Shown here: one piece after another, positions 44,485-62,242 of the stretch
Layout of the letters: each line of letters opens with the position of its first letter
Numbering within the stretch: the stretch's first letter is position 1
Assembly: GCA_963775935.1 (NCBI GenBank)
Contig: CAVZKR010000002.1
Span: 159,687 to 223,686 of the forward strand
Direction of reading: 5' to 3'
Source: an uncultured Chloroflexia bacterium
GTDB lineage: Bacteria > Chloroflexota > Dehalococcoidia > GIF9 > UBA5629
Length of the DNA stretch: 64,000 nucleotides
The notes under the pieces: model-generated
Databases searched by the model: none
The model's input: the letters and a program-made list of their open reading frames with translations, nothing else
What the model was told of the DNA's origin: nothing
Made by a program: the position numbers and the translations under genes

Positions 44485-44620
44485 TCATTGCGAGCGAAGC
44501 GTGGCAATCTCTATGTTTTGCTGAGGGCGATGAGATTGCTTCGTCGCTATCGCTCCTCGCAATGACATGTGGTTTAATGTTCCTCTCAATGATATGGTGG
44601 AAAGGCTCCTCGCAACGACA
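44485..44620. repeat. REP/MITE-like element, full copy (44485-44567) plus two degenerate boxA' repeats at ~27-bp spacing
   Basis: GTCATTGCGAGCGAAGCGTGGCAATCTC ... GAGATTGCTTCGTCGCTATCGCTCCTCGCAATGAC, then CCTCTCAATGAT and CCTCGCAACGAC. Confidence 0.85.
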
Positions 44621-44644
44621 CCATTTATCATCACTTTGGTGCTA

Positions 44645-45481
44645 TTAGCTGCAATACTTTAATAGCTCTGGCGCCATTTCACCGGCATAATAGAGTGTGC
44701 GATAAGCCGTTGATAGCCTGGCTTTCCAGTCGAAGCCCCTGGCGGTCACGATACCGGCCAGCACTCTGACGTTTTGGAGCTTAGACATGGCGTGATCATA
44801 GTCCAGGTAAGCGATATAGAACTTCTCACCCAAAGACAAGGCTTTATGCTTCAGGCTGCTAAAGCTGCCACAGGTAGAGGGGGCTGCGGGGCATCCTGGC
44901 TCTGACACCCTCTCGGCGGCTTCTCTGAAGCTATAACCCCATACATCAGCAAACCTGGCATCGGCTTTCATCACGATATAGTCCCAGTAGGCTTCGACAT
45001 GCTCGATATGCTCGGCTGGGGCTGCCTGGCCTTCGGCTAATGCCTGGTAAAGCTCGGTGCTGGGATTAGCAGCTCCATAGGTAAGGGGAGCACGCTCCTT
45101 AACCCTAGCATCAAAAGCCTGCACGTCCCATGCTGGAGCTGGAGCTGCTGCTACCACTGCTGGCTGGCTGGCTGCTACTGCTGGCTGGCTGGCTGCTACT
45201 GCCTGGCTGCTTGCCTGCTGCTGTGCGGGCATCAAGTAGCCTGGGGCTACCAAGGCATTAGCTGCCTGGTTTCCAGTGGAATTTTTAATCTTGGTGTTAT
45301 CATTGATGCCTCCCACCAAAGCGATCAGCGTGGGCATAAACTCCTGGACAAGCCCTGATAGCGTGTTCTGAGTTTCTGGATTAGAAACAAAGACATTGAT
45401 GAGGGTGACAACTATGGGGATGATAACAGAAGCGCTATACTTCTTCTTCCCCACCATGAAGTTGTTTAACCAGTTTCCCAT
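44645..45481 (-). CDS. hypothetical membrane-anchored protein with Ala/Gln/Pro-rich repeat linker (phage-like operon)
   Basis: Start MGNWLNNF (M19 of the track ORF; upstream residues are repeat-element translation). N-terminal TM helix. AASQPAV x2 is encoded by a 21-bp tandem repeat near 45150-45200. Confidence 0.5.
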   Translation of the reverse strand: MGNWLNNFMVGKKKYSASVIIPIVVTLINVFVSNPETQNTLSGLVQEFMPTLIALVGGINDNTKIKNSTGNQAANALVAPGYLMPAQQQASSQAVAASQPAVAASQPAVVAAAPAPAWDVQAFDARVKERAPLTYGAANPSTELYQALAEGQAAPAEHIEHVEAYWDYIVMKADARFADVWGYSFREAAERVSEPGCPAAPSTCGSFSSLKHKALSLGEKFYIAYLDYDHAMSKLQNVRVLAGIVTARGFDWKARLSTAYRTLYYAGEMAPELLKYCS

Positions 45482-45519
45482 TAGATTGTGCCTCCTTTTT
45501 GGTTTTTTCCGGTAACGAT

Positions 45520-45576
45520 GAGATTGCTTCGTCACTGCGCTCCTCGCAATGACAGAGGGGCGCTCCTCGCAATGAC
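45520..45576. repeat. REP/MITE-like half element (boxB'-boxA'-boxA')
   Basis: GAGATTGCTTCGTCACTGCGCTCCTCGCAATGAC AGAGGGGCG CTCCTCGCAATGAC. Confidence 0.8.
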
Positions 45577-45585
45577 ATTGGTTTT

Positions 45586-46011
45586 TTAAACAAGTACTGC
45601 CAGGGCATCGGGCAACGATTTGCCTGCCTTCTTATAGTGAGCTGCCAGGTGGGCGGCGGCTGCCAGTATTTGCAGCTCATCGGCGATCACTCTCTGCCCC
45701 TCGACTCCTTGCCGTGATAGGTAAGCCACCATGAGGGGCATGTTCACCCAGTCAACGGTATGCTCGTAACCTAGCTTGCCCTTGATGGCTCGGTATACCT
45801 GCCTGGTATGGTGTGGCAGTTTCCAGGTCTCGGGGTTAGCCCTATCTCCCACAATGGCGAAAGCCTGATGTGGCAAGCCTCCACGTGATACCGGCTGCTC
45901 CTCCTCATCCTGGTCGAACTCATCTGGTGGGATAGTGGGGGCGATAACGTCTATCTTTTTAAGCCCCTTTCTCCCACTTGCTAGTTTCTGCTTTGTTTTA
46001 GTTGTTACCAT
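45586..46011 (-). CDS. hypothetical phage-region protein (141 aa)
   Basis: ORF track. It overlaps the upstream connector gene end by 14 nt, consistent with an operon. Confidence 0.5.
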   Translation of the reverse strand: MVTTKTKQKLASGRKGLKKIDVIAPTIPPDEFDQDEEEQPVSRGGLPHQAFAIVGDRANPETWKLPHHTRQVYRAIKGKLGYEHTVDWVNMPLMVAYLSRQGVEGQRVIADELQILAAAAHLAAHYKKAGKSLPDALAVLV

Positions 46012-46586
46012 AGATTAGCCTCCGTGGTCGTACTTTAGATTTAAGCTTCTTACAGCCGTCAATAAACTCTCTTAGCCTGGCCTCACCCCATGAGCGATAA
46101 TCGGTATCGGTGTTCTCGCCTCCGTAGTTAGCTCTATTGGTGCTGTACTCTGCCTGGGATATAGCTGCATAGGCTGCAGCTCCCAAAGCAACCAGAATCC
46201 TCATGCTGGGTGGGGATGGTAGAACTTCCGTCCAGGGTATGAACCGTGCTCCAATAGACGTTACAATCTTCACCGTCACCGGTGACACCCAGCAAATAGA
46301 GGGTATCCTGGAAGGTTTCAAAGGGGACAAACGTCCTGGGTGTTTCATCGATGGGGAACTCCACCCTGTCTATTGATATCCTGGGGGTAAGGGTGCTGAT
46401 GTCTACCTCCACGCTGGCGGACACGGTTTCCAGGGTGGACATGGTTTCCAGGGGGCAATACTTGGAGAACTCGGATACTGCCCTGGCGACAGCTCTTTCC
46501 AGCTCATCATCCGTCCAGCGGTAGGTAGCCTCATCCTCATCTTTGAGGTCGATGCGTACCAGGGCAACCATAGCGTCTAAGTCCAT
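45998..46586 (-). pseudogene. head-tail connector (gp6-like) protein, frame-broken near 46195-46205
   Basis: Two track ORFs overlap by 215 nt in different frames (46134..46586 and 45998..46348). The N-terminal VALVRIDLKDEDEATYRWTDDELERAV resembles gp6-like connectors. Sensible sequence continues in the +1 frame (LVALGAAAYAAISQAEY...). Confidence 0.5.
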
Positions 46587-46608
46587 AGTAGTGTCTCCTC
46601 ATTCTGTA

Positions 46609-46642
46609 GAGATTGCTTCGTCACTTCGTTCCTCGCAATGAC
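46609..46642. repeat. REP/MITE-like half element (boxB'-boxA')
   Basis: GAGATTGCTTCGTCACTTCGTTCCTCGCAATGAC. Confidence 0.8.
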
Positions 46643-46799
46643 AAGGTGGGCGTTTTTAGCAGCTCCACCTGGACGGATCCGCTGGGGTCTGAGACAATTC
46701 TGCCAACGTCACCACGCTGCAAGCCCAGCTCCTTCTCCAGATCAACACAGGTAATTGACGAATATGGTTTTAAGTTTAGCCACATAGTTAATTCCTCCT

Positions 46800-47564
46800 T
46801 TATGCTTTAGGTAAGGCAACTGCCAGCGCATAGGCTGAAACAGCTATAGCCATGTTGGCTACGCCTGCGCCATTTTCCACATCAGCATAAGCGCTCATAA
46901 GCGCTGCTGAATCGCCTGCTGGTATTTTAGCGGTATCGGTTTCGGTATACTTCAATACCCAGCCTGTGCCTGAATCGATATAAAACTTAATGCTGGTGGC
47001 TGGCGTATGCACAATAAGAGCGTAATAATTCGTCCAGGTGGAAAGCGCCATAGATAACGATGTTTCTTTTCGTGAATCTCCATAGCTCTCGGCGTAAAGA
47101 GCACCGGCCATAACCTTCAAGCCAACACCTTTAGCTGCCAGGTCTCCAAGTGTAGTTACCTGCTTAAACTGAAACCTGGCAATAGTGAGAGCCGTATTAA
47201 CACTAATCTCAAACGTAAACTTCAGCATATACGGCTTATTAAAGTCAAACAAACTACATAACCTTCCTGGTCTGGTCGCAAGAGCCATCGAGGCATCACC
47301 AGTTGATGACGAGCCTGTAGTTGTCCCTGTATTCAGATAGTTATACCAGAGGCCACCGTAGCCGCCACCAGAGCCTACCTTATTGCGGTTATAGAAATAG
47401 CTACCAAGAGAATACTCATAGCGATGGCCTGAAAGGCTAATACCGCTGGGGTCCTCGTAGGCAATAAAAGGCCTGCCGTAATTATCAAACAACTGCGCTG
47501 GGTTAGTCGGGTCAACTATGACCTGGATGGGGTGACCATATTCATCAAACAATTCATTTGCCAT
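46800..47564 (-). CDS. hypothetical phage structural protein (254 aa, Gly/Ser/Thr-rich, beta-rich)
   Basis: ORF track plus its position between the decoration-like and connector genes. Confidence 0.5.
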   Translation of the reverse strand: MANELFDEYGHPIQVIVDPTNPAQLFDNYGRPFIAYEDPSGISLSGHRYEYSLGSYFYNRNKVGSGGGYGGLWYNYLNTGTTTGSSSTGDASMALATRPGRLCSLFDFNKPYMLKFTFEISVNTALTIARFQFKQVTTLGDLAAKGVGLKVMAGALYAESYGDSRKETSLSMALSTWTNYYALIVHTPATSIKFYIDSGTGWVLKYTETDTAKIPAGDSAALMSAYADVENGAGVANMAIAVSAYALAVALPKA

Positions 47565-47592
47565 AATCAGTTACTCCTTTTCTGTCAGCGAT

Positions 47593-47626
47593 GAGATTGC
47601 TTCGTCGCTGCGCTCCTCGCAATGAC
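47593..47626. repeat. REP/MITE-like half element (boxB'-boxA')
   Basis: GAGATTGCTTCGTCGCTGCGCTCCTCGCAATGAC. Confidence 0.8.
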
Positions 47627-47766
47627 AGAGTATATTTGCCAGGGTGGGGGGGCTGGGTAGTATTACCCCCCTCCCTGGCTGTGCAAGGAGGTTAGATGGC
47701 CTGCAGGGCGGTTACCTCTGATGAGGTGGGTATACCCTGCAAGCTCTAACGCTTCTTATTCAGTTG

Positions 47767-48177
47767 TTAAGCGGTGCTATCTGCCCTGCTGTTCAGAATG
47801 AACATTACTTCCGTGGCCGATAGGGCAATACCGATAATGGTATTAGCATCGCCTCCTGTGCTGGGTGCGGTCTCGGTTACCTGGCCGTTAAGGGTGCTCT
47901 CGGCAACATAGATGGGGTTGCCTGCGGTAGCCCCGGTATAGCCCCCCACTACTGCCCTGGGGGATACCGGTATGACGTCACCAATGGCGCCGTCTGCCAG
48001 AGCTACAAGCCTGCCCTGAATAACTCCGCCGGTGGTAGCCAGAGCTCGTTTCCATCCTGAGCTATAGCCGAGGATATCACCGCGCAAGCAAGCTCCTGCC
48101 AGGGTCACGGTGGGGGCTGAGGGTGCGACACCTGAGTTAATTATCTGTCTGTCTTTTGCTGGGTCTGCGAATGCCAT
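47767..48177 (-). CDS. small phage head-associated protein (decoration/cement, DUF2190-like?)
   Basis: 136 aa, Gly/Ala/Val-rich, located immediately after the major capsid gene. Confidence 0.4.
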   Translation of the reverse strand: MAFADPAKDRQIINSGVAPSAPTVTLAGACLRGDILGYSSGWKRALATTGGVIQGRLVALADGAIGDVIPVSPRAVVGGYTGATAGNPIYVAESTLNGQVTETAPSTGGDANTIIGIALSATEVMFILNSRADSTA

Positions 48178-48206
48178 AGTATTTACTCCTTTAAGTTATT
48201 TACTCT

Positions 48207-48310
48207 GTCATTGCGAGCGTAGCGAAGCAATCTCCGTGTCTAACTGTAAACGTAGAGATTGCTTCGTCACTTCGTTCCTCGCAATGACATGGTTCGTATT
48301 CCTCGCACTA
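48207..48310. repeat. REP/MITE-like element, full copy plus one degenerate boxA'
   Basis: GTCATTGCGAGCGTAGCGAAGCAATCTC ... GAGATTGCTTCGTCACTTCGTTCCTCGCAATGAC, then TTCCTCGCACTA. Confidence 0.85.
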
Positions 48311-48338
48311 CTTTATTTATGCCAGCGGGTGCTACCCG

Positions 48339-49263
48339 CTAATCCTGGACTCCGATAAGGGCTGCTGCCTTGACGTTGCTGAACAGTGCCAGGCTGACAT
48401 ACCACTTGATACGGGTTCTGACGGCATCTTTGGTCTCCATGGGGCCGATAGGCTCTGCCTGTAAGCCTCCTGGGCTGGTCAAGCCGCAAAGCCCGTTCTC
48501 ACCGTACTGGACGGCATAGATAACGGAGCTGGTGCTGCCAGTGACGGCGGTCTCTACACTGCTGGATACGGTATGAGTATCAAGCTGGAAGTCGCTCACT
48601 GATATGGGTATGCCGTTATAGAGCTGCACGAACTCTCCGAGAAGCCCTTTGCCTACTTCCAGATTGTTACCGGCAGCTCGCGCCAGGGCGTTAATCTTCC
48701 TGCGGGACCGGCGGGACATAACCAGCATATCTGGCTTGCCTCCCCTGATGGCGTCAATGAGCTGGTCAAGCATGGTTAACGTCAAGGTGGCACCACTGGC
48801 GCCTGCGGCGATCACCTGGGCGCTGGCAGCACCGGTATTGATAATCTTCCGCAAGCCGTCGAACTGGTTAGCATCGGCTGAGCTATCGCCGTAAAGGAAC
48901 TTGTCCTCCAGCTCATGCCTGATAGCCTTGGCGGTAAGCTCGATAATGGCTGCCTCTACGTCCTGAATGTTAGAACGGGTCTGCTTGATGTAATTGTCGA
49001 CGCTCGGCGTTCTGACCCAGGATTTTAAGGGTAGCGGTCTGCTGGCTGAAAGCCAGGGCGGGGCTGGTCACCCAATCGTCATTGGCAGCATGCCACTCTG
49101 CCTCGGGTAGGGTGCTCTCACGGTTATAGGTCAAGGCATTGCCCACAATCTCAATAAAGGGCATGGTCTGGAGTAGCGGGCTATCCTTGATAATGGTTTC
49201 AATGACACCCTGTAACAGGGCATCATTACTAAGTTTGGCTGCTTCGGCTAAGGTTGTTGCCAT
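48339..49263 (-). pseudogene. HK97-fold-type major capsid protein, frame-broken near 49000
   Basis: Track ORFs 48970..49263 and 48339..48854 lie in different frames. My translation of the gap in the second frame is open and sensible (VDNYIKQTRSNIQDVEAAIIELTAKAIRHELEDKFLYGDSSADANQFDGLRKIINTG). This gives a ~308-aa capsid-like protein if one nt is removed. Confidence 0.7.
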
Positions 49264-49287
49264 TTATGTTATTTCTCCTTTTGTTAG

Positions 49288-49797
49288 TTATTTCTTCTTG
49301 CTGGCTAAGCCATGATTGATTTTCTCCCTGGTGGTCATAGCAGACAGGTCGGGGGGTGTTCTGCCTGGCGCACCGGCTGGGATGGTAACCTGCTGGGATT
49401 CCTGGCTGAGCCCCTGCTTAATCTTGCTGACGATAGCAGATGCCTTCTCCACGGCAGCATCCACTTCGGCGATGGTAGCACCGCTGATCAGCTCGGCTGG
49501 GACCAGGGGGTTCGCTTTTAACAGCGCTCCCTTATAGGCGGTGACAGCGCCGTCAAGCGAAGCGGTAAGCGAAGCGAAGCTCTTATCGCTGTCGCTAAGC
49601 TTAGCTTTGAGGACATCAATGTCCTGGGACTTGCTGCCAACTTCGGAGTCAAGCGTAGCGATGCGGTCACTGAGGGGTTTGGTGGCCTGCTCCACTGCCT
49701 GGCTGGTGGCAGTCTTAGCTGCCTCCAGCTCGGCCTGCAGGGTTGAATAGGCTTCTAGGGTGATCTCCTGGGTAGCTGGGATATTCTCTTTAGACAA
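49288..49797 (-). CDS. phage scaffolding protein
   Basis: 169 aa, Ala/Glu/Lys-rich with coiled-coil character, between the portal and capsid genes. It overlaps the portal stop by 8 nt. Confidence 0.6.
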   Translation of the reverse strand: MSKENIPATQEITLEAYSTLQAELEAAKTATSQAVEQATKPLSDRIATLDSEVGSKSQDIDVLKAKLSDSDKSFASLTASLDGAVTAYKGALLKANPLVPAELISGATIAEVDAAVEKASAIVSKIKQGLSQESQQVTIPAGAPGRTPPDLSAMTTREKINHGLASKKK

Positions 49798-51217
49798 GTG
49801 TTCCTCCTTCGGTAGTTTCTATAGCCTGCTCGGCCTCTGCGGTGAATTTTCTATCTCTCTCTCCGCCGCGTGTTGACCTCGCTTTAAACTCGTTATTCAT
49901 TTCCAGGATGCGCTTCCGTTCGTCTAACCAGCGGTTAAACTCCTGCTCGGGATCCCTGATGCCTAACTCATCCATAGCAGTACGCCTGCTATGGACGCCT
50001 GACTGTACCAAGAGCTGCTCATTCTGCGCTGATCGGACGGCATCCTGAGGCAATACCTGCCCCCATATAATTCTCTGGTTAACCTGATTAAGGTCTTGCC
50101 TGGCAAACTGCTGATGCAGTTTAAGGATCATCTGATTCCTGGTGGTATAGGTAGCGGTGCGGATGGTGCGCTTGCGCCGTACCTTCTGAAGCAATGATTG
50201 CAGCTCCACTTCAAGGGCAACGCCTGAAAGCTCCCTCTCGATGCCTCCGTAGGCTGCCCTGGGGGCTTCAGAGATGTCATGGAGGCAGCGATAGACTAAA
50301 TCGATATAGTCCACATGGAGCCTGATGCCTCCCCCCTGCAGCAAGTCCAGCAAGTACGCCTTGCTCTCCTGGGGGATATTCCAGACGGCGCCTGGCTGCA
50401 CTCTGATATCCTCTGAGCTTTCCACACCTTCGAGTACGGCGATGGGATTGCCTGATACCTCCAGGATGCGGCTGAGCTGGGTCAAAGCTCGGTTAAGCTC
50501 GGTCTGCGCCTGCTTAACGGCTGGTATATCGGAATAGCCCCAAAACTTCTTAGGCTGCCTCAGATTGGGGAAGATCACAAAGGGGATAAAGCCATAAGGA
50601 TTCGGCTTATTCTCAATAAGGTCGTTATCAATAAAGAGCTGGAACTGCTTAGCCGTCCATACCTCGGTAAGCATGGCGAACTTCTTAGATATCTTCCTGG
50701 AGTAAAGTAGCTCAATCTCCTCTTGGCTAAGCTGATACCTGCTGGCTACTCTCCACACCTTGCTGATATCGTCTCCCATGTGCCAGGCATAGAGGCCGTG
50801 AACATCGGGACTGGTTACCCTGATACGCTTTTCCAGATTGTCATAGGTGACCTTATAGCACCCATCCCCCAATACGGCTGCGTCAATTTCCGTTTCATAG
50901 TCCAGCTCCTGGAGATTATTATCCTGGTAAACACGGTAGAGCAATCGTTCTGCTTCCTGCGCCACCTGTTTATCGGGTCCTGAGTCAGTGACCGAGTCAC
51001 AGGCGAAGTTCAATCCCTGGGTCAAATAGCTGGTAACCTTATCCACGGCGATTCGAACATAGTTAAACACGAGCTGTCGATTGCGTGACCGCTCTGCCCA
51101 CTGGCTGCCTTCGTAGAAGTCCAGGTTAGCCTTATAGGCGCCCATGCGGTCCTTATCCATATTAGCCAGGGACTGAGGATTAAAGCCTGCACTGAGCGGA
51201 GCGAATGTGTCAGTCAT
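49790..51217 (-). CDS. phage portal protein
   Basis: 475 aa with a DFYEGSQW-type N-terminal motif. Located upstream of the scaffold and capsid genes. Confidence 0.7.
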   Translation of the reverse strand: MTDTFAPLSAGFNPQSLANMDKDRMGAYKANLDFYEGSQWAERSRNRQLVFNYVRIAVDKVTSYLTQGLNFACDSVTDSGPDKQVAQEAERLLYRVYQDNNLQELDYETEIDAAVLGDGCYKVTYDNLEKRIRVTSPDVHGLYAWHMGDDISKVWRVASRYQLSQEEIELLYSRKISKKFAMLTEVWTAKQFQLFIDNDLIENKPNPYGFIPFVIFPNLRQPKKFWGYSDIPAVKQAQTELNRALTQLSRILEVSGNPIAVLEGVESSEDIRVQPGAVWNIPQESKAYLLDLLQGGGIRLHVDYIDLVYRCLHDISEAPRAAYGGIERELSGVALEVELQSLLQKVRRKRTIRTATYTTRNQMILKLHQQFARQDLNQVNQRIIWGQVLPQDAVRSAQNEQLLVQSGVHSRRTAMDELGIRDPEQEFNRWLDERKRILEMNNEFKARSTRGGERDRKFTAEAEQAIETTEGGTLV

Positions 51218-53570: not shown

Positions 53571-56500
53571 ATGAAAGTTAAATATTCGAGTTTTCTTGGA
53601 ATACTCGTCGCTCTGATGCTGGTAGCCAGCTTTGTGGTACCGGCCAGACTGATGAGCCCCGAGCCGGTATCTGCCGCTTCCGAGCAATCGAAAATGCAAT
53701 GGTGGACGGTAGACACTCCGGATAATGAATTAGGTCAGACCAAGAACCTGTACAGCCCGATATGGCCAACGGCGGCAGGTACTGAGTCTGGTTCGGAACT
53801 GATCAAGCTGCTGGTGGGCAGTAATGGCACCACCATGTATGTCATTTATGCCCGCACCGCTGTGGGTACTACGGCACTTGGCCCCCCCCCTGTTAGCAGC
53901 CTGGATGACGCTCTGTTTGCCAGGGTACGGTTTATGAAATCCAATGATGGCGGCCGTTCCTGGAGCGGAGCCAACTACAACAACCTTGTTCGAGACTGGC
54001 TGAACCCGACGACGTTTAGTCCCGGGCAGTATCCCAAGGTTTGCATCTGGGATATGGTGATAGCGCCGGATAATCCCAATGTCGTCGCCGTTGCGGCAAG
54101 CTATGTTGGCAATCCCGTTATTGCTGGCGAGGGCATAAACATTCACAGAGTGTTCATTTCCATGGATGGAGGCAGTAACTGGGAAAATACCCAGTGGGCA
54201 CCGGCGGCACCGGCACCTCTGCCTGATACCTATATCAGCGCCATGGACATAAGCATGGACTACGGCGCCCGTTCCATTCTGGTGGGCTGCCGCCGCGGTG
54301 TGGTCACCGCTGACAACAATATGCTGTGGACGATGAAGATGCCCGGCTACGGTGGCTGGAACGCCCAGAATACTGATAACGGCACACCGGCATCGATTAA
54401 TCCCTTTGACGGCGATATCATTGCCGCCAAATTCTCGCCGACCTTCAATGGTGATTCCACCATTGTTGTGATCTATGCAAATGCCGTCGGCACCTACATG
54501 GTCACTGGTGTTGCTGACATCGCTAAGAACACCACCACCTGGCAGCCGGCTGGCACGCATGTGGAAATCATGCGGCCGACCGACAGTCCAAACTTTTCGC
54601 CTAACATCAACGAGATCATCACTGCTATGATTCAGCTGCCGTCAGACTTCTCCGGCCAGAGCGCCAGCCTGCGCCGCGTCTACGTCAGCACTGATTCCAT
54701 CGGTGCTAATGGTGCAGTTGCCCGCGGTGTGTTCCGCATTGATGACAATATCGTCTATTGTCTGATGGACAACACCAATACGTTCTACGTTGCTGGCGTT
54801 ACCACGTCACGTAGAGCTGCCAGCATTGCCTACTGGGGCACCTATGCCTCAGGCAAGCTGCTGGTTGGCGAGAGACTGGGACAGGCCTGCAGGGCACAGG
54901 TCCCGGTATGGTTCACCGACTCGCCGACCACCTGTCCCGTACCCTGCTGGTATCCGGCCAAGAAACCGCCTACCGGCGCTGCTGGACAAACCGATTGTAC
55001 TTCGAGTACTAATTACTATGGCAATGCCTATGTGGTGTGGTCACCGACCTTTGCCGCACAGGGCGTCGCCTATGCCACTACTGGCGCCTCGAGCTACGAT
55101 GGGGCGTTTCTTGCCTATGCTTCTCCGCAGACGCCAGCTATCAACTGGCCTGCTGCCATTTTCAACATAAGATTCCTTGACGAGTCAGCATTCAGTCTGA
55201 CCCGCAATAACGGTGAGACCTGGAACCAGCTGTCATTGATTGACACTCGGATCAACAAGCTCACCGACGTTGCCCCATCTCCTGATTGCACCACGGTCTA
55301 CCTGGCATCGGTCAACAATGGAACCTACTGTCAGGGCTTTGACAGCGTGTGGCGCAGCAGCACCAATGAGAAAGTAGTGGCTCCGCCGCTACCGGCACTG
55401 CCCATCGGGCAGGTGTGGGAGAGGGTGTACACCCATGTCACCGCTCTCACCTGCACTGATGTTCCTCAGTCCAACTATGCTATCCTGAGACTGGCTCCGG
55501 ATAAGCTGGACGGACAGGTGGTAGGCTGGGCTGCTGGTGGTACCAGCGGACTTTCTGCTATTGGTGGATTCGGTGTTGGTGCCAACACCAAAGCGATGGC
55601 CTGGTCACCGGACTTCGGTGATTACTGGGCTGACCAGAACCCCAGAATCCCGGTACAGGACTTTGCCTTTGAAACCAGCACCATTCTGTATGTCCTGTCG
55701 CTCGATGGCAATATGCAGAAGATGCCGTACACCGGCACTGCCTGGTCGAGCACCATCCAGACGGTGGGCACGGCCACTGCTGGCGGTCACACTATTGAAG
55801 CCATGGCGCCTGACAAGGTGCTGGTGGGCAATGCTCAGACAGGAGCCTCGCCGAATCCGGCATCCCTCTCCACCAATGGTGGCACCTCCTTCGTGCCAAT
55901 GGTGAGACCGATGCCGAACGCAGCTACCGTCGGCTACCATGCCATTTTTGACACCGACTTTGTCAAGAATGCCACCATCTATGTCGCCAACGACAAAACG
56001 GGTTATGGCCTGGTCTACCGCAATACGGCACCGGCCGGCTCCAATGTCGACTGGACCGACATGATGACCAACATGTGCTTCATCGGCTATGCCGGCCCGC
56101 ACGAGGCGTACTTCGGTCTGATACAGACCAACTCGCTGAACGCGACTGGCCAGGGCACGCTGTATGCAGCCCATGACTGGCAGAGTCAGGGTGGATGGAG
56201 TGGTGTCGAGCGTACACTTACCCCGCTGGCTGGGATACCCAAGCCAGGTCTGGAATGGGTATGTCTCGATGCTGCTGCCTCTCCATATCAGGCTCAAAAC
56301 GTCCAATTCACCCTTGAGCCGAAATCACTCAAATTCTGCGGTTGTCTGACTGCTGACACCTATACTACGCTGTATGCCATTGACAACGATTACTACTCCG
56401 ATGTCCACAACGTTGGCAAGACTACTGCCTGGGCTGGGTACAACAAAGGCGTCAGGACAATCGGCTTGCTCTGGGAGTACACTGACTGTGTCGCCAAGAA

Positions 56501-57380
56501 GGGTCCCAAACTGACCCTCGATGACGGCGCCATCATTGGCTGCGATCCAGCCACTGGCCGAAACCAGGAAGTGAACTTCCGCTGGGAGCAGCTCTGCATC
56601 GCCACACTGTACCAGTTGCAGATAGCCAAGGATAAGGCATTCACGCTGGGCGTGTACGATAGCTCTGCTCCAGTATGCTCTTCCTCAGGTCCCTTTGGCG
56701 TATTACCAGTCGACGTTACCTCGCCGGCTCTGGTGTACTTCACCGGTGGTGGCGGCACCATGCCTGACACTTCCGATGCAGCGGGCACCGCCCGACGCTC
56801 GGAAGGCTGGCAGCCTTCAGTACCCGCATTAGAGTGCGGACATCTCTACTACTGGAGAGTGAGAGTCCTCGATGAGGTCACGCTTGATGCGGTCATCAGC
56901 CCATGGTCTGACGTGAGGAACTTCACCATCAAAGCTGGATTCCGCGTTACCACTCCGTACTACGGACCGCAGCTTTTGTCACCGGACAATGGCTGTGCCT
57001 GCCCGTGCGACACACCGATAGCTTTCTCATGGTCGCCGTTCAAGGAGACCACAGCATACAAGATACAGATATCTGCCAATGCTGACATGAGTGCTCCATT
57101 GGAAGAGGATTCCAATGTCATCTCCACGGCGTACATGGCGAAGAAAGCGAAGTTCGATTGTGGCAAACAGTACTTCTGGCGCGTACAGGCTGTGAAGCCG
57201 GCACCGTCAGAGTGGAGTGCGTCATTCGCCTTCTCCATCCAGCCGAGACCGGCGGCACCTCCGACAGCTCCTGAACCCAAAGAACCGACAACTCCGTTAT
57301 GGGTTTGGATAGTGATAGCCATTGGTGCCATTCTGGTGATTGTGACTCTGGTCCTCATTATGAAGACCCGCAGAGCCTAA
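53571..57380 (+). CDS. very large secreted, C-terminally anchored BNR/Asp-box beta-propeller protein with FN3-like domains (S-layer/surface protein candidate)
   Basis: 1269 aa. Signal peptide MKVKYSSFLGILVALMLVASFVVPA. Asp-boxes SNDGGRSW, SMDGGSNW, TRNNGETW. YYWRVRV and YFWRVQA FN3-like modules. C-terminal TM helix plus KTRRA. Confidence 0.8.
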   Translation: MKVKYSSFLGILVALMLVASFVVPARLMSPEPVSAASEQSKMQWWTVDTPDNELGQTKNLYSPIWPTAAGTESGSELIKLLVGSNGTTMYVIYARTAVGTTALGPPPVSSLDDALFARVRFMKSNDGGRSWSGANYNNLVRDWLNPTTFSPGQYPKVCIWDMVIAPDNPNVVAVAASYVGNPVIAGEGINIHRVFISMDGGSNWENTQWAPAAPAPLPDTYISAMDISMDYGARSILVGCRRGVVTADNNMLWTMKMPGYGGWNAQNTDNGTPASINPFDGDIIAAKFSPTFNGDSTIVVIYANAVGTYMVTGVADIAKNTTTWQPAGTHVEIMRPTDSPNFSPNINEIITAMIQLPSDFSGQSASLRRVYVSTDSIGANGAVARGVFRIDDNIVYCLMDNTNTFYVAGVTTSRRAASIAYWGTYASGKLLVGERLGQACRAQVPVWFTDSPTTCPVPCWYPAKKPPTGAAGQTDCTSSTNYYGNAYVVWSPTFAAQGVAYATTGASSYDGAFLAYASPQTPAINWPAAIFNIRFLDESAFSLTRNNGETWNQLSLIDTRINKLTDVAPSPDCTTVYLASVNNGTYCQGFDSVWRSSTNEKVVAPPLPALPIGQVWERVYTHVTALTCTDVPQSNYAILRLAPDKLDGQVVGWAAGGTSGLSAIGGFGVGANTKAMAWSPDFGDYWADQNPRIPVQDFAFETSTILYVLSLDGNMQKMPYTGTAWSSTIQTVGTATAGGHTIEAMAPDKVLVGNAQTGASPNPASLSTNGGTSFVPMVRPMPNAATVGYHAIFDTDFVKNATIYVANDKTGYGLVYRNTAPAGSNVDWTDMMTNMCFIGYAGPHEAYFGLIQTNSLNATGQGTLYAAHDWQSQGGWSGVERTLTPLAGIPKPGLEWVCLDAAASPYQAQNVQFTLEPKSLKFCGCLTADTYTTLYAIDNDYYSDVHNVGKTTAWAGYNKGVRTIGLLWEYTDCVAKKGPKLTLDDGAIIGCDPATGRNQEVNFRWEQLCIATLYQLQIAKDKAFTLGVYDSSAPVCSSSGPFGVLPVDVTSPALVYFTGGGGTMPDTSDAAGTARRSEGWQPSVPALECGHLYYWRVRVLDEVTLDAVISPWSDVRNFTIKAGFRVTTPYYGPQLLSPDNGCACPCDTPIAFSWSPFKETTAYKIQISANADMSAPLEEDSNVISTAYMAKKAKFDCGKQYFWRVQAVKPAPSEWSASFAFSIQPRPAAPPTAPEPKEPTTPLWVWIVIAIGAILVIVTLVLIMKTRRA

Positions 57381-57402
57381 AATACACCAGTACTTGAATA
57401 GT

Positions 57403-57437
57403 AAGGGGGTAGCCAAAAGCTACCCCCTTATTTTTTA
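57403..57437 (+). terminator. rho-independent terminator
   Basis: AAGGGGGTAGC-CAAAA-GCTACCCCCTT followed by ATTTTTT. Confidence 0.8.
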
Positions 57438-57442
57438 CCCTC

Positions 57443-57563
57443 TGTCATTGCGATGGGTTAGCCTTATGTCAGAACAATGTAGTGGCCGACCTGAAGGTAC
57501 GCCCCTACAATCACGTGTCATTGCGAGGAGTCCGCCTACGGTCAGACGACGAAGCAATCTCTC
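57443..57563. repeat. REP/MITE-like: degenerate boxA (57443-57455) and a boxA-boxB arm (57517-57563) upstream of the GIY-YIG gene
   Basis: TGTCATTGCGATGG ... GTCATTGCGAGGAGTCCGCCTACGGTCAGACGACGAAGCAATCTCTC. Confidence 0.8.
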
Positions 57564-57615
57564 TACATATCCCTATACAAAGCATGCATGATGCTGCTAC
57601 CATGTAATAACACAC

Positions 57616-57903
57616 ATGAATAAGCAATATTACGTATATATTATGACCAATAAGATAAACACGGTTCTTTATACTGGAGTGACTAATGATGTACAGAGGA
57701 GAGTAGTAGAGCATAAAGAAGGATTAGGAGGGGGATTCAGCAAACGCTATCAGACCAATAAGCTTATCTACTATGAGATGACTAGTAGCATCGAAAGTGC
57801 TATTGCAAGGGAGAAGCAGATTAAAGGTGGTTCGAGGCAGAAGAAGGTAGATTTAATCAATAGTGTTAATAAGGAATGGCGTGATTTATTTTTGGATTGG
57901 TAA
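57616..57903 (+). CDS. GIY-YIG nuclease family protein (small stand-alone, COG2827/UPF0213-like)
   Basis: YYVYIMTNKINTVLYTGVTNDVQRRVVEHK ... AIAREKQIKGGSRQKK, showing the GIY, YIG, Arg and Glu catalytic signature. 95 aa. Confidence 0.85.
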   Translation: MNKQYYVYIMTNKINTVLYTGVTNDVQRRVVEHKEGLGGGFSKRYQTNKLIYYEMTSSIESAIAREKQIKGGSRQKKVDLINSVNKEWRDLFLDW

Positions 57904-57925
57904 AAGGATACTGAAACGAGTGCGC

Positions 57926-58061
57926 AGAGATTGCTTCGTCGCGGAGTTTATACTGAACGAAGTGAATGTGCTCCTCGCAATGACATGGGGAGGCGTTTCT
58001 CGCAATGACGGGAAGGAGAGGGTTCCTTGCAATGAAAGGGGGAGACATTCCTCGCAATGAC
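57926..58061. repeat. REP/MITE-like: boxB'-boxA' arm (57926-57984) followed by three more boxA' units at ~26-27-bp spacing
   Basis: AGAGATTGCTTCGTC...CTCCTCGCAATGAC, then TTCTCGCAATGAC, CCTTGCAATGAA and TCCTCGCAATGAC. Confidence 0.85.
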
Positions 58062-58130
58062 GGGGAAAAGGCTGGATGCCAGTTGACATCATTTGCGGGC
58101 GTCTTTATACTTTTGAGAAGAGGTGTAACT

Positions 58131-59399
58131 ATGAATAAAAATAAAGCACTATTGAGTCTTTTTATTTTGATACTTACTATTATCGCTGTCACCGCGTCGA
58201 GCTGTATCACCATCGTGGAAAAGAGCAACCCCAGCGATAAGCCGGGCATTTCGGTGCCACCGACAGGGCTATCAGGTTCCGGGGCGCCGGTGATTAAATC
58301 CTTTGTTGCCGGTCAGACTTCGGTCAATGCTGGTCAGCAGGTTCAGTTGACCTGGGAAGTATCAGGGAGTCAGAAGGTGGAAATCAGTCCGATTGTGGGG
58401 ACGGTGGATGCCGTAAGCGCCGCCCTGGTATCACCCACGGCGACCACGACATATACGTTGACCGCTACCAATGCTGCCGGCACCACTGTTGCCAATGTCA
58501 CCATCGCAGTTGCTGCGGGAGCCGCCAGCAGGGCGGAGCTGGCCATCACCGACATTCAGCTTGTTACCAGAGACGTATACTATAAGACAAAGAATTCGGG
58601 TGGTGCTGAGTCCAAAGGGTGCCGCGCTAACCTGTATGTCAACGGCATTAAGCAGGCTGATGACTATATCGAGATATTGTCGCCGGGGCAGGAGAGATTA
58701 AGTAATTTCTCCAACTATTCTTTCCCTTATCTGGTCGGTAGTCTTCCTGAGACTCAATTTTTTGAATTGCTGCGGCAGTTCACCATAAAGGTATGCGCTG
58801 ACGTGGAAAATGTGGTCGTGGAAAGCGACGAGAGCAATAACTGCAAGTCGGTTATCTGGGGACAGAAGTTTGTCTACAACTTCCTCAATTTCTCCCATCA
58901 GGCGCTGTGGACTACCGGCTACGGCGTGTTAAAACTGCCCTTGCCCGAGGATAGCTCCACCGGGTCGGCTCGGGTAGAATATCAAACGCTCGAGGATAAT
59001 CTGGGCTACGGGGCAGCGCTGCTCACGGTTCCCCAGCAGGTGAACGACGGCTGGATACAGGGACAGTATGGTGAGTTCTATACCGATGAGCTGCGCCAGA
59101 CCCGCGTCCGTGAGATTACCATCCCGGATATGGCGATATTCAGCGCCAAAGTGGGGTTCTCTTCCGGCACTCCTCCAGGCAGCCAGGCCAGATTCATGTT
59201 CGGCACTGTTGACCAGAGCGGACGTGCCACTTTCGCTCCGGCGATCACAGCAAGCATGGATGGCAAACTGCAGGCATACGAGTGGGATTTAAGCAGTGTG
59301 GCGGGACAGAAGCGCATGTTCGTTCTGAGGGTTGAGGTTATCGGGTCTACGGCAAAAGTGAGGCCAGTTTGGGTGGACCCCCAGATATCACAGCCATAG
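58131..59399 (+). CDS. lipoprotein with Ig-like and CARDB domains
   Basis: The start MNKNKALLSLFILILTIIAVTASSC has a lipobox-like Cys. CARDB-like ELAITDIQL...KNSGGAES...ESDESNNC. The first 42 codons of the track ORF (58005) are repeat translation. Confidence 0.75.
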   Translation: MNKNKALLSLFILILTIIAVTASSCITIVEKSNPSDKPGISVPPTGLSGSGAPVIKSFVAGQTSVNAGQQVQLTWEVSGSQKVEISPIVGTVDAVSAALVSPTATTTYTLTATNAAGTTVANVTIAVAAGAASRAELAITDIQLVTRDVYYKTKNSGGAESKGCRANLYVNGIKQADDYIEILSPGQERLSNFSNYSFPYLVGSLPETQFFELLRQFTIKVCADVENVVVESDESNNCKSVIWGQKFVYNFLNFSHQALWTTGYGVLKLPLPEDSSTGSARVEYQTLEDNLGYGAALLTVPQQVNDGWIQGQYGEFYTDELRQTRVREITIPDMAIFSAKVGFSSGTPPGSQARFMFGTVDQSGRATFAPAITASMDGKLQAYEWDLSSVAGQKRMFVLRVEVIGSTAKVRPVWVDPQISQP

Positions 59400-59431
59400 G
59401 ATTTATTCCTGTCATTACTGTTCTTTACTCT

Positions 59432-59523
59432 GTCATTGCGAGCCGAAGCGAAGCAATCTCTCTGCCTACATGTCAAGGAGAGATTGCTTCGTCGTCCACC
59501 CCAGGTGGACTCCTCGCAATGAC
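59432..59523. repeat. REP/MITE-like element, full copy (plus degenerate boxA at 59411)
   Basis: GTCATTGCGAGCCGAAGCGAAGCAATCTCTC ... GAGAGATTGCTTCGTCGTCCACCCCAGGTGGACTCCTCGCAATGAC. Confidence 0.85.
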
Positions 59524-59816
59524 AAAATGGATGAGTGGTTGTAAAACTTGACAAGCTGCAGGCTGCTACTTATAATAAAAGAAAACTACTTTCCCCTGCT
59601 TTTAATTTGTTAGTCCTTTATTTATTTTCCCATAATAGTATGTTTTCAGGTATTGTGGTGTAGGTATAATTGTACTGTGGGAATACAACATACCACCACT
59701 GTCATCAGGTATATGTATCTTTCCGTTTACTCTAGTCGTAAATCGTTGTGATATGCAGGATTTTAAACCTCTGTATAAACGAAATGCGAGTTTCCACCGT
59801 ATAACTAGAGAAGCCG

Positions 59817-61448
59817 ATGAGTAAGTATATTTTTGTTACCGGTGGCGTTGTCAGTTCAGTAGGCAAAGGCATCAGCGTTGCTTCTATGGGACGGGTGTTG
59901 AAGAGCCGTGATGTTACGGTTTCTGTTCAGAAGCTGGACCCCTACCTGAACGTTGACCCAGGCACGATGTCTCCTTATCAGCATGGCGAGGTGTTTGTCA
60001 CTGACGATGGCGCCGAGACGGACCTTGATTTGGGACATTATGAACGGTTCATTGATGTTGACTTAACTCATGCTTCTAATGTCACCTCCGGTCAGATTTA
60101 TTCTGCGGTGATCGCCGGTGAACGGCGAGGCGATTTTCTCGGCGGCACCATCCAGGTGGTGCCCCATGTGACCAATGAGATTAAACGGAAAATCAGAGAA
60201 GTTTCCCGCCTCTCACAGGCTCAGGTGGTCATTGTGGAGGTTGGCGGTACGGTGGGTGATATTGAAGGGCAGCCGTTTCTGGAAGCTATTCGCCAGATGC
60301 GGAATGAAGAGGGCAGGGATAATACCCTGTATATCCATGTAACCTACTTGCCTCATATTTCCACGACCAACGAACTCAAAACCAAGCCCACACAGCACAG
60401 TGTGAATGAGCTGCGGCGCATCGGTATCCAGCCGGATATCATTCTTTGCCGTGCCGATTTTCCCATCTCGGAAAGTATCAAGGAAAAGATATCGCTGTTC
60501 TGCAGTGTGGATAGAAATGCGGTCATCCCGCTGGTTACTGCGGAAACGATTTATGAAGTACCGCTGATGATGGAAGATACCGGTCTGACTGATTTGATAG
60601 TGGAGCGCTTGAAGCTGGGGGGAGAAGCAGCTGACCTTACCGAGTGGCGTCAGATGGTAGTGAAGCTGAAGGCTCCCAGAGAGCCGGTGACCATAGCCCT
60701 GGTAGGCAAATACGTGGAGCTTCAAGATGCCTATTACTCGGTGCGGGAGGCGCTTGGGCATGCCGGACTGTACCATAACCGTCAGATAAACATGCAATGG
60801 GTGCATTCCGAGGGTCTGGAATGTGCCAGCGGCGGTGAGAACCTGCTGCGAACAGCCCAGGGCATCATTGTGCCCGGTGGCTTTGGCTATCGGGGTATTG
60901 AAGGTATGATTGCAGCGGCGCGCTATGCCCGGCAGAATCATATCCCCTATCTCGGCTTATGCCTGGGTATGCAGGTTATGGTAATTGAGTTTGGGCGCTA
61001 TGCTTTGGGGAGTAAGCTGGCGAATTCCACCGAGTTCGACCCGGAGACACCGTATCCAGTGATTGACTTACTCCCGGATCAGATCAAGATAAGCAATATG
61101 GGTGGCACGATGAGGCTTGGGGCGTATCCCTGCCGGCTGGTTCTCGGTACCCATGCGGCGGCGGCGTATGCTCAGGAGGTAGTCCATGAACGCCATCGCC
61201 ATCGTTTTGAGTTCAATAATCACTTTCGCGAACAGTTTGCCCAGAAGGGTATGGTTGCCAGCGGCGTATCTCTTGATAACAGGCTGGTGGAGATTACCGA
61301 GTTGAAAGACCATCCCTGGATGGTGGCATGCCAGTTTCATGCCGAGTTTAAGTCACGTCCCAACCGCCCCCATCCTCTGTTTGTGAAATTTATCGAGGCG
61401 GCGCAAGAGACGCTGGTTGAAGGCGCCCAGGTGACCATGCCGCTTTGA
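59817..61448 (+). CDS. pyrG: CTP synthase
   Basis: MSKYIFVTGGVVSSVGKG N-terminus and the GLCLGMQ glutaminase Cys motif. 543 aa. Confidence 0.95.
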   Translation: MSKYIFVTGGVVSSVGKGISVASMGRVLKSRDVTVSVQKLDPYLNVDPGTMSPYQHGEVFVTDDGAETDLDLGHYERFIDVDLTHASNVTSGQIYSAVIAGERRGDFLGGTIQVVPHVTNEIKRKIREVSRLSQAQVVIVEVGGTVGDIEGQPFLEAIRQMRNEEGRDNTLYIHVTYLPHISTTNELKTKPTQHSVNELRRIGIQPDIILCRADFPISESIKEKISLFCSVDRNAVIPLVTAETIYEVPLMMEDTGLTDLIVERLKLGGEAADLTEWRQMVVKLKAPREPVTIALVGKYVELQDAYYSVREALGHAGLYHNRQINMQWVHSEGLECASGGENLLRTAQGIIVPGGFGYRGIEGMIAAARYARQNHIPYLGLCLGMQVMVIEFGRYALGSKLANSTEFDPETPYPVIDLLPDQIKISNMGGTMRLGAYPCRLVLGTHAAAAYAQEVVHERHRHRFEFNNHFREQFAQKGMVASGVSLDNRLVEITELKDHPWMVACQFHAEFKSRPNRPHPLFVKFIEAAQETLVEGAQVTMPL

Positions 61449-61480
61449 ATGAGAGACTATAAAAAAGCTGAGGTGAGACT

Positions 61481-62146
61481 ATGCGTTTGTTCTTAGATAC
61501 GGCGAATATCGAGCATATCGGTCATGGAGTAAGGCTCGGAGTAATTAGCGGTGTTACCACCAATCCCAGCCTGGTGTCCAAGGAAGGCAAAGTTGACTAT
61601 AAACAGCTTGTCCAGAAAATCTGCGCTATCGTCCCCGGCCCGGTATCGACCGAGGTGCTGAGCACTGGTGTCGACGGTATGATTGCCGAGGCGAGGAGGA
61701 TTGCCAAATGGGCAACGAACGTGGTGGTAAAAATACCTGCCAGTATCCAGGGAATCGAAGCTACCCACCAGCTATCGAAAGAGGGCATTAAGGTAAACCT
61801 TACCCTGTGTTTTTCGGTGAATCAGGCGTTATTGGGAGCTTCGGCAGGAGCTGCCTATGTCAGTCCTTTTGTGGGCAGGCTCGATGACATCGGCGAGAAC
61901 GGTATGAGGCTGATACAGGAAATCGTGGCGGTATTCAAAACCTACCCTGCTGTTACCACGGAGGTTATCGCTGCCAGCATTCGCCATCCTAAGCACTGCG
62001 TGGAGGCGGCTCAGGCGGGTGCGCCCATCGCTACTATTCCCTATCAGATACTGCTCCAGATGGCGAAACATCCTTTGACCGATATCGGCATCAGCCGTTT
62101 TCAGGAGGACTGGCGCAAGGTGATGGGGGAAGCGAAGATTGAGTAG
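61481..62146 (+). CDS. transaldolase / fructose-6-phosphate aldolase family (short TalC/Fsa type)
   Basis: [13 protein letters not shown]...GVTTNPSL...VKIP (Schiff-base Lys context). 221 aa. Confidence 0.85.
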
Positions 62147-62159
62147 CATTTTTATGCCT

Positions 62160-62242
62160 GTCATTGCGAGGAACTGTAGTGACGAAGCAATCTCTGCGTT
62201 TATAGATAGACAGAGAGATTGCTTCGCTGCGCTCGCAATGAC
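62160..62242. repeat. REP/MITE-like element, full copy
   Basis: GTCATTGCGAGGAACTGTAGTGACGAAGCAATCTCT ... AGAGATTGCTTCGCTGCGCTCGCAATGAC. Confidence 0.85.

Follow-up and report, generated by a model that had tools for sequence, protein, structure and literature searches.

Clustered hairpin repeats of a Dehalococcoidia genome as probable recognition sites of a small Ssn-family GIY-YIG nuclease

A 64,000-nt stretch of the genome of an uncultured Dehalococcoidia bacterium (Chloroflexota), hereafter the window, carries a dense family of short palindromic repeats and, in their midst, a gene for a 95-aa GIY-YIG protein (57616-57903, + strand). Our results support a model in which the repeats are probably the recognition hairpins of a GIY-YIG single-strand DNA nuclease of the Ssn family, that is, Ssn-related motifs (SRM). 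For the biochemical details of this pairing our confidence is somewhat lower.

The repeat-plus-nuclease arrangement was described in 2025 and is already known as a kind. The Neisseria meningitidis nuclease SsnA, 94 aa long and with a single GIY-YIG domain (CDD cd10448), recognises a hairpin repeat, NTS (CGTCATTCCCGCGMAVGCGGGAATCYRG), which it binds only when the DNA is single-stranded and only on one of the two strands; it cleaves single-stranded DNA upstream of the hairpin and does not bind RNA (Chenal et al., Nat Commun 2025, PMC11893778). The same study reports that ssnA is typically framed as NTS-ssnA-NTS, that NTS repeats are intergenic and clustered next to surface and virulence genes, and that the system reduces transformation by NTS-flanked DNA (PMC11893778). 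Its authors found thousands of SsnA homologues across phyla, flanked by SRM, and predicted many nuclease-hairpin pairs (PMC11893778). What is new here is a hairpin class that lies outside the published search pattern, together with doublets of a short and a long hairpin, a conserved cluster that lacks the enzyme, cassettes in which repeats bracket a gene, and arrays of partial copies at the 5' side of the hairpins.

Copy number and clustering of the repeats

In the window (C2:159687-223686 of a 2.75-Mb assembly in 8 contigs; the genome is 88% complete), the box TGTCATTGCGAG occurs 24 times with up to one mismatch, compared with a mean of 0.35 and a maximum of 3 in 100 dinucleotide-preserving shuffles, and the inner box GAGATTGCTTCG occurs 15 times where shuffles lead one to expect 0.42. 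The dispersed palindromic family that a preliminary description of this DNA had reported is thus real, and all 11 of its loci are present within one or two bases of where they had been placed. Partial copies of the first box, at 44609, 45566, 51558, 51580, 51696, 57443, 57999, 58036 and 58051, had been missed.

Genome-wide there are 62 non-redundant arms, as we call the unit of the repeat. Because 14 of them lie between 44.4 and 62.3 kb of the window, that is, in 17.8 kb or 0.65% of the genome, where about 0.4 would be expected (Poisson probability about 1e-17, by our own arithmetic), the clustering in the accessory region is real, and an even spread is not seen. The first 44 kb of the window hold a single copy, the doublet at 26506-26589, as had been noted. 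By a crude ORF map of the whole genome, 55 of the 62 arms are intergenic, in agreement with the position first assigned to the repeats, and in the cluster they adjoin surface-protein genes, as NTS repeats do. The peptides of the ORF track that had been called artefactual are just that, CHCEERSDEAIS being the direct translation of TGTCATTGCGAGGAACGAAGTGACGAAGCAATCTC; such peptides (CHCEERSDEAIS…) account for spurious ORFs and assembly breaks in metagenomes.

Anatomy of arms and doublets

The preliminary description took an 85-bp palindrome as the repeat unit. The unit is instead a single arm of 26-56 nt, 5'-(T)GTC-ATTGC-[loop]-GCAAT-C, in which a 5-bp stem (ATTGC/GCAAT), covarying within the arm, closes a purine-rich loop that is framed by GAG…GAA (or GTG or GCG) and frequently contains a nested hairpin; the (T)GTC at the 5' side is invariant. 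Arms fall into three size classes, namely S (26 nt, TGTCATTGCGAGCGAAGCGAAGCAATCTC, with loop GAGCGAAGCGAA), L (32-33 nt, with loop GAGGAACGAAGTGACGAA) and H (42-56 nt, with a nested hairpin such as GTCCACC…GGTGGAC or TCCCGAT…ATCGGGA). Loops are otherwise highly variable, with 231 distinct sequences of 7-52 nt among 270 arms. Those of 18 nt or more fold better than their shuffles (-3.8 vs -2.0 kcal/mol) and include at least 84 distinct nested-stem sequences.

Full copies are head-to-head doublets with their GTCATT ends facing outward. There are 17 such pairs in the genome and no tail-to-tail pair; 16 of the 17 combine an S arm with an L or H arm, and in 14 the spacer measures 23-24 nt. When oriented from S to L, the doublets align as a single directional unit with a partly conserved spacer. 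A further 28 arms stand alone, and what had been taken for truncated half copies, reduced to boxB'-boxA', are complete solo arms. In this genome the copies share 74-91% identity, none of them being identical to another at an unrelated site, and inspection of the 10-12-nt flanks of 18 copies revealed no target-site duplication. The idea that the spacer is an ORF remnant is unsupported across phyla, since spacers are lineage-specific. Six 34-nt arm-like matches without GAG (GTCATTGCCRACATGCTCATCCTTGCAGGCAATC; C2:129206, 295073, 329854, 349550 and 427728, and C4:575039) were also excluded: five belong to the coding sequence for the conserved N-terminus of paralogous 4Fe-4S subunits (MKALVIDITRCNGCHNCQIACKDEH…), and the sixth (C4:575039) is a diverged 51-nt variant within an unrelated ORF.

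This organisation recalls the REP/REPIN-RAYT systems of Pseudomonas fluorescens, in which intergenic hairpin repeats likewise occur as doublets and solos, with a patchy distribution and a single-copy cognate enzyme gene flanked by repeats (Bertels and Rainey 2011, PMC3116915). It also recalls bacterial MITEs (miniature inverted-repeat transposable elements) such as Correia elements and Nezha, which are intergenic, similar in size at about 85 bp, bear terminal inverted repeats and, like the doublets here, look like ORF-less derivatives of an ORF-bearing copy (review, PMC10969869). The repeats were accordingly first called REP/MITE-like, and a classical REP/REPIN family with a RAYT (a Y1 HUH transposase), or else a MITE derived from a DDE element, would explain palindromic, intergenic repeats in REPIN-like inverted doublets. 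We consider this highly improbable. The RAYT domain PF01797 was not found in the genome as assembled (88% complete), in a search that was positive in 6 of 14 control genomes, and on this ground REP/RAYT is rejected; the enzyme here is a GIY-YIG hydrolytic nuclease and not a Y1 HUH transposase, and the likeness of the 17 head-to-head doublets and 28 solos to REPINs is one of organisation only. A classical MITE is ruled out by the lack of target-site duplications and of a transposase-bearing parent: there is no DDE parent, the only ORF found between arms is the GIY-YIG gene, and the solo half-units are complete, functional-looking hairpins. What stands of the original label is that these are hairpin repeats, partnered with a small nuclease gene.

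Pairing within the arm

We scanned 300 arms, from 80 loci of other phyla and from this genome, for stem partners, with no requirement of complementarity. Opposite ATCGC we found GCGAT in 11 cases and GCAAT in two; opposite ACTGC, GCAGT in three and GCAAT in one; and opposite ATTAC, GTAAT in two and GCAAT in one. GTTGC goes with GCAAC six times and, as a wobble pair, with GCAAT 21 times. Two doublets with mixed stems are informative: at C2:155857 and C4:463790 one arm has ATCGC/GCGAT and the partner arm still has ATTGC/GCAAT. Since the compensating change lies within one arm, pairing within arms is favoured over pairing between them. We therefore conclude that the stem probably forms within a single arm and that the arm is the functional unit.

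A nuclease gene framed by outward-facing arms

One copy in the window carries a gene. Its left arm (57517-57559, +; 43 nt, with a nested-hairpin loop) and its right arm (57929-57984, -; 56 nt) face outward, and the 95-aa ORF at 57616-57903 (+) lies exactly between them. The full copies of about 85 bp are the two-arm frame of this gene-bearing copy without the gene. The protein consists of a single GIY-YIG domain (PF01541, residues 4-77, E=5.9e-18) with no other domain match. An NCBIfam search returned no specific model and only a weak, sub-threshold match to group I intron endonucleases, and the nearest solved structures are the UPF0213 proteins 1zg2 and 1ywl. Its GIY-YIG catalytic residues are conserved, Y5, Y8, Y19, G21, R29, H33, E66 and N85 being invariant among 16 homologues.

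The Ssn-type gene is the only one of its kind in this genome; apart from it, GIY-YIG was matched by UvrC and by a UPF0213-like protein of 83 aa. The latter gene (C5:51553-51800, UPF0213/BH0048-like) was considered as a second candidate and proved unrelated to the family; it has no flanking arms and so provides a useful internal contrast to the Ssn-type gene.

Homology searches returned at least about 8000 relatives, mostly of 95 aa and many on very short contigs. The best homologues come from metagenome-assembled genomes (MAGs) of Dehalococcoidales and Dehalococcoidia, which is consistent with the lineage of the window but is not a taxonomic test. In species-representative genomes there are at least 595 loci with relatives, and we analysed the gene-arm association across phyla in the best 80 of these. 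The proteins are 55-72% identical to the 95-aa protein and come from at least 17 phyla, among them Chloroflexota, Cyanobacteriota (Nostoc, Anabaena, Calothrix), Ignavibacteriota, Patescibacteria, Nitrospirota, Planctomycetota and Pseudomonadota. All four arm boxes (upstream GTCATTGCGAG…GAAGCAATC, downstream GATTGCTTC…CTCGCAATGAC) flank the homologous gene within 260 nt in 44 of the 80 loci, three are present in 14 further loci, and 2 loci have none. The gene is tightly packed between its arms in many phyla, with 10-30 nt upstream and 0-10 nt downstream, and both in this genome and in the loci of other phyla the GIY-YIG gene is the only type of ORF found between arms. A protein tree on 92 columns was for the most part too poorly resolved for horizontal transfer to be read from it. 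In Planktothrix agardhii a 62%-identical homologue lies on plasmid p1 (18847-19131) between an MmeI-type restriction-modification gene and drmA, the DISARM helicase gene, and thus inside a defence island.

Relation to Ssn nucleases and NTS repeats

The 95-aa protein is recognisably related to SsnA. A tblastn search with it against a plasmid collection brought up two N. gonorrhoeae chromosome records at E=2e-18, with 96% query coverage; the published homology criterion for Ssn is tblastn E<1e-10 (PMC11893778). It is 44% identical (BLASTP E=2e-28) to the 94-aa gonococcal homologue of SsnA, the comparison being with the N. gonorrhoeae and not the N. meningitidis protein, and Y8, Y19, G21, H33, E66 and N85 align with identical residues there. 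The gonococcal locus has seven exact NTS repeats in 1.47 kb, and they flank the 94-aa ORF. Arm and NTS share a common frame, GTCATT-GC…GC-AATC in the former and GTCATT-CCCGC…GCGGG-AATC in the latter.

Intermediate forms connect the two. Beside homologues of the nuclease gene in eight relatives of the same class, we found a graded series of stems (ATTCT/AGAAT, ACCCT/AGGGT, ATTCC/GGAAT, ATTCCGGC/GCCGGAAT and ATACCCGCG/CGCGGGTAT), across which the identity of the protein to the 95-aa nuclease drops from 63% to 40%. The ATTCT/AGAAT variant keeps the same GAGCG.AGCGA loop, and ATTCCGGC-GAAG-GCCGGAAT is NTS-like.

The likeness to the Ssn/NTS system extends to its layout. In both, the gene for a single-domain GIY-YIG protein of about 94-95 aa lies between copies of an oriented hairpin repeat that are inverted relative to each other. 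In both, too, the repeats are plentiful, intergenic and clustered by surface-protein genes, and some genomes have repeats but no gene. SRM are oriented hairpins of 20-50 nt with a conserved single-stranded 5' flank, and the arms, at 26-56 nt with their (T)GTC, are of the same build. The differences concern the hairpin and the host. The arm stem is 5 bp long and AT-rich (ATTGC), whereas the NTS stem has 8 bp and is GC-rich; the arm loop is large, at 12-52 nt, framed by GAG…GAA, very variable and commonly holds a nested hairpin; and the arms form short-plus-long doublets with a near-fixed spacer of 23-24 nt. Unlike the Ssn hosts, the organism here is neither a symbiont nor a pathogen but an anaerobic member of the Chloroflexota, represented by a MAG.

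Among other known systems, the dRS3 repeats and neisserial intergenic mosaic elements are similar in forming palindromic arrays and repeat-gene-repeat arrangements around variable surface-related genes (PMC11893778). A comparable bracketing is seen here for the gene at 46800-47564, for a 1269-aa surface protein and for a CARDB protein; the sequence of the repeats, however, is a different one. The non-intron GIY-YIG insertions in rRNA genes of the CPR (candidate phyla radiation) also combine a tiny GIY-YIG ORF with a short non-intron insert and show no apparent spread by classical homing (Tsurumaki et al. 2024, PMC11270868). Those insertions lie inside rRNA genes, with no palindromes or inverted repeats mentioned (PMC11270868), whereas the present elements are intergenic.

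Distribution and turnover in related genomes

We surveyed 151 genomes of the class, which are related and not independent, so that counts are given without a significance test. The exact arm pattern occurs in 49 of them, in 1-247 copies, and a reversed-pattern control in none. A homologue of the nuclease (E<=1e-10) is present in 51 of the 151, distributed over 21 of the 33 genomes with at least 10 arms, 8 of the 16 with 1-9 arms and 22 of the 102 with none. Eight genomes with the gene and no exact arms were sampled, and all carry other arm variants.

Comparison of orthologous junctions reveals gain and loss of repeats. The spacer between the transaldolase gene and rho holds a doublet here and a solo arm of another subtype in the relative G151, and in five other relatives it has no arm. 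The most useful comparison is with G153, a genome of the same genus (97% complete, 2 contigs). At the hub-gene junction (44483-44567 in the window) G153 likewise has a doublet, the two being distinguished by a nested hairpin in one arm, and at the CARDB-pyrG junction it has a solo L arm in place of the doublet of the window. At the junctions at 45.5, 46.6, 47.6, 48.2 and 51.6 kb there are arms here and none in G153; three of these (46.6, 48.2 and 51.6 kb) hold a different palindromic repeat in that genome, and the same intergenic sites therefore host different families in sister genomes. The alternative repeat is a family of about 80 nt (…cccctctcc…ggagagggg… plus cgaaggggc…gccccttcg) that lies within C1:642000-681000 of G153. 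The gene at 46800-47564, which is bracketed by arms here, is missing from the otherwise syntenic phage-like operon of G153. No clean empty site could be aligned, the intergenic DNA of the closest relatives being too diverged (their coding sequences are 76-83% identical).

Predicted viral contigs of IMG/VR also carry the S arm, its exact 26 nt being present in at least 105 stretches. In cultured phages we found only distant GIY-YIG relatives.

Points that weigh against the pairing of arms and nuclease

Several observations tell against the view that the arms are substrates of the 95-aa nuclease. They concern the company that the arms keep, the published search pattern and the folding of the hairpin itself.

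The nuclease gene was not seen in 12 of the 33 arm-rich genomes of the class. In G153, which has 32 arms (15 of which fall in the syntenic 33 kb), the gene is missing too. The 80 viral-contig loci that we analysed, out of at least 105, hold 201 arms and 42 doublets, again with no nuclease gene. The arm-rich genomes and G153 indicate that arms persist without the enzyme, and the cluster that G153 keeps in the absence of the gene cannot be a mere halo around it.

The published SRM search pattern, HGTCWYN(0-2)YYVSBRHN(0-5)WNVSBRGN(0-2)RNCYNB, overlaps none of 64 arms, and its 7 matches in the genome compare with 10-17 in shuffles, although the same regular expression recovered all 7 NTS repeats of the gonococcal locus. 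The pattern was derived from 29 genomes, and we treat it as a search tool and not as a conceptual definition. Because it misses the arms, we file them as a variant of the Ssn/SRM kind and not as a described member of it. The possibility raised at the outset, that the repeat already belonged to a named family, is thus borne out as far as the class is concerned, since the arms fall among the Ssn-related motifs described in 2025 (PMC11893778), but not for this sequence variant, which the published pattern does not reach. The arm sequence was printed in no paper that we found: a literature string search with GTCATTGCGAG gave unrelated primers only, and 14-16-mers of the arm gave nothing. Keyword searches that combined GIY-YIG with MITE, inverted repeat or COG2827 likewise yielded nothing relevant.

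A formal covariation count on 42 distinct rows, a deliberately noisy set, gave a score of 0.243 compared with 0.189 for shuffles (reached by 3 of 500) and 14 doubly changed cells where 7.4 were expected (reached by 5 of 500 shuffles). The count thus supports pairing within the arm, but only moderately, and a partner slid by three columns scores similarly. Taken singly, the S and L arms make weak hairpins according to nearest-neighbour DNA energies (-2.7 and -3.6 kcal/mol, z about 0), and the long imperfect hairpin into which a full copy can fold as a single strand, correctly anticipated in the preliminary description (-26 kcal/mol, z about -7), would dominate over them. The S loop contains GCGAAGC, reported to be an unusually stable DNA mini-hairpin whose stability is underestimated by nearest-neighbour energy models. 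Box A of one arm and its partner's box A' share the ATTGC/GCAAT pentamers, so that the same local stem would be expected in either conformation.

Stutter copies and a possible mechanism

Beside arms are partial copies of the first box, which we call stutters. Each comprises the outer flank and about 11 nt from the start of the arm; they form tandem series with a period of 17-27 nt, oriented like the arm itself. In this genome stutters lie just outside the 5' end of arms, 17 upstream compared with 1 downstream. Similar tandem repeats accompany other hairpin variants (for example at least 8 units in G148 and 5 in G005, two relatives of the class) and apparently occur also in the N. gonorrhoeae locus. 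The stuttered side of the arm is the side on which SsnA cuts, and the stutters may be the footprint of repeated nicking and slipped repair.

These observations are consistent with a model in which the 95-aa enzyme would bind the hairpin, on the GTCATT strand only, whenever the DNA becomes single-stranded, as during replication, in R-loops, or in incoming transforming, conjugative or phage DNA. It would then nick the GTCATT strand a few nucleotides 5' of the hairpin. Each strand of a doublet has exactly one sense arm at its 5' boundary, and the two predicted nicks would therefore bracket the doublet. Cutting of motif-bearing single-stranded DNA might in turn modulate recombination and horizontal exchange of the bracketed phage-derived and surface-protein genes, and could also drive the local duplication, turnover and spread of the repeats themselves. 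The binding, the cleavage and the strand specificity are predicted from the homology to SsnA, and the biological effect is likewise a prediction.

The same facts lend themselves to a different purpose. The arms could be the termini of a transposon or a homing unit, a selfish mobile element that the GIY-YIG nuclease moves, with the arm-gene-arm copy as its autonomous form, the doublets of about 85 bp as MITE- or REPIN-like non-autonomous derivatives, and the clustering as local hopping of no benefit to the host. This proposal overlaps with the recognition-hairpin model and differs from it in purpose only. The arm-gene-arm layout is indeed like that of an insertion sequence, with the gene tightly packed in many phyla; the doublets behave as one directional unit (17 head-to-head, 0 tail-to-tail); copy number is patchy and bursty within the class, from 0 to 247; presence and absence differ at orthologous junctions within a genus; the exact S arm occurs in at least 105 viral-contig stretches; and proteins from at least 17 phyla are 55-72% identical. 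Yet no target-site duplication is evident in the flanks, and the copies, at 74-91% identity, include no identical ones at unrelated sites and thus give no hint of a recent burst. The too-diverged relatives offer no alignable empty site, and the resolution of the protein tree is too low for transfer to show. To our knowledge, GIY-YIG enzymes are hydrolytic nucleases with no strand-transfer or ligation activity. We regard a selfish element as a tentative possibility.

A stronger version, that the S/spacer/long-arm doublet and the gene-bearing form make up a truly mobile element that a GIY-YIG single-strand nuclease, guided by the hairpins, would move, seems to us rather doubtful. If true, it would mean a transposition or copy mechanism new for bacterial elements, with a strand-specific nick site on either side of the element and the stutters as its repair footprints. 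The element would then be among the most widely spread small mobile DNAs of bacteria, since viral contigs and at least 17 phyla have its 11- and 9-nt boxes in near-identical form.

A possible role in RNA

It is also conceivable that the repeats act as RNA, a transcribed long hairpin stabilising or processing mRNA or tuning the translation of the next gene, much as has been suggested for some REP, BIME and ERIC elements, with the link to the nuclease being secondary. In the phage-like operon the arms lie between consecutive genes, 13-31 nt upstream of the starts and not on the ATG, with a Shine-Dalgarno sequence in between, and its four solo arms are all sense to the genes. Doublets between co-directional genes have their long arm in the sense direction in 9 cases and antisense in 2 (two-sided binomial p about 0.07), and the G-T wobble (G-U in RNA) is common, GTTGC with GCAAT occurring 21 times. 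The bias does not extend to solo arms between co-directional genes, which genome-wide are 9 sense and 9 antisense, and arms also occur between divergent and convergent genes. The comparison with Rfam that the preliminary description had proposed gave no match, either for the whole window at gathering thresholds or on the elements (44000-62600) at E up to 1. No T-run follows the hairpins, which are therefore not intrinsic terminators. The conservation across phyla is tied to a DNA nuclease gene, and SsnA does not bind RNA (PMC11893778). An RNA-level role thus appears improbable as the main explanation.

Implications

If the arms are the recognition hairpins of the nuclease, an orphan-looking repeat family becomes one half of an enzyme-substrate pair that can be tested, since both the nuclease of 95 aa and the hairpin of 26 nt lend themselves to synthesis and direct assay. 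The pair would extend the Ssn system to free-living anaerobic Chloroflexota and, via the shared boxes, to cyanobacteria, Patescibacteria and many other phyla. It would also mean that the published SRM search pattern overlooks a whole class of hairpins. The doublets, cassettes, enzyme-less clusters and stutter arrays bear on how Ssn-type repeats spread, and a new specificity of an Ssn nuclease for its hairpin would be of interest for single-stranded-DNA tools.

Repeat loci and neighbouring genes in the window

The remaining loci are described here in order. The isolated doublet at 26506-26589 has an L arm (26507-26538, +), a 24-nt spacer and an S arm (26563-26588, -). The cluster opens with the doublet at 44483-44567 (S arm 44484-44509, +; L arm 44534-44566, -), 11 nt upstream of the start of a 782-aa hub-like gene; a stutter (TGTCGTTGCGAG; 44609-44620, -) lies outside the 5' end of its L arm. 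A solo L arm follows at 45522-45553 (-), with a stutter at 45566-45577, the two together spanning 45522-45577 at a distance of 23 nt. Solo L arms at 46611-46642 (-) and 47595-47626 (-) form the direct-repeat brackets of an arm-gene-arm cassette. The gene between them (46800-47564) encodes 254 aa with a weak, sub-threshold match to PF22237 (SO2946-like_C).

The doublet at 48206-48289 (S arm 48207-48232, +; L arm 48257-48288, -) is followed by that at 51603-51687, with an S arm (51604-51630, +) and a decayed right-hand L arm; stutters accompany it at 51558 and 51580 (+) and at 51696-51707 (-). In the gene-bearing copy, the left arm has another stutter (TGTCATTGCGAT; 57443-57454, +) at 73 nt on its upstream side. 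Beyond the 5' end of the right arm come three more (57999, 58036 and 58051; 57999-58062, -), which overlap the point where the CARDB surface-protein ORF is predicted to begin. The doublet at 59431-59524, located between the CARDB gene and pyrG, consists of an S arm (59432-59458, +) and an H arm (59482-59523, -) whose nested hairpin is GTCCACC/GGTGGAC. The last doublet, at 62159-62243 (L arm 62160-62192, +; S arm 62217-62242, -), sits between the transaldolase gene and rho.

The phage-derived module of the window (portal, capsid, connector and hub; 42127-53108) is conserved in G153 at 50-87% amino-acid identity, but with respect to the pyrG-transaldolase-rho block it has the opposite orientation in that genome. 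Neither the 1269-aa surface protein nor the nuclease gene (53571-57903) has a counterpart in the 39-kb stretch C1:642000-681000 of that genome. Two listed ORFs start inside arms, namely rho (TTG 62219) and a 296-aa gene (GTG 45535). Alignment with relatives places the true rho start near 62290-62300, and the listed N-terminal extensions are therefore artefacts of the repeats.

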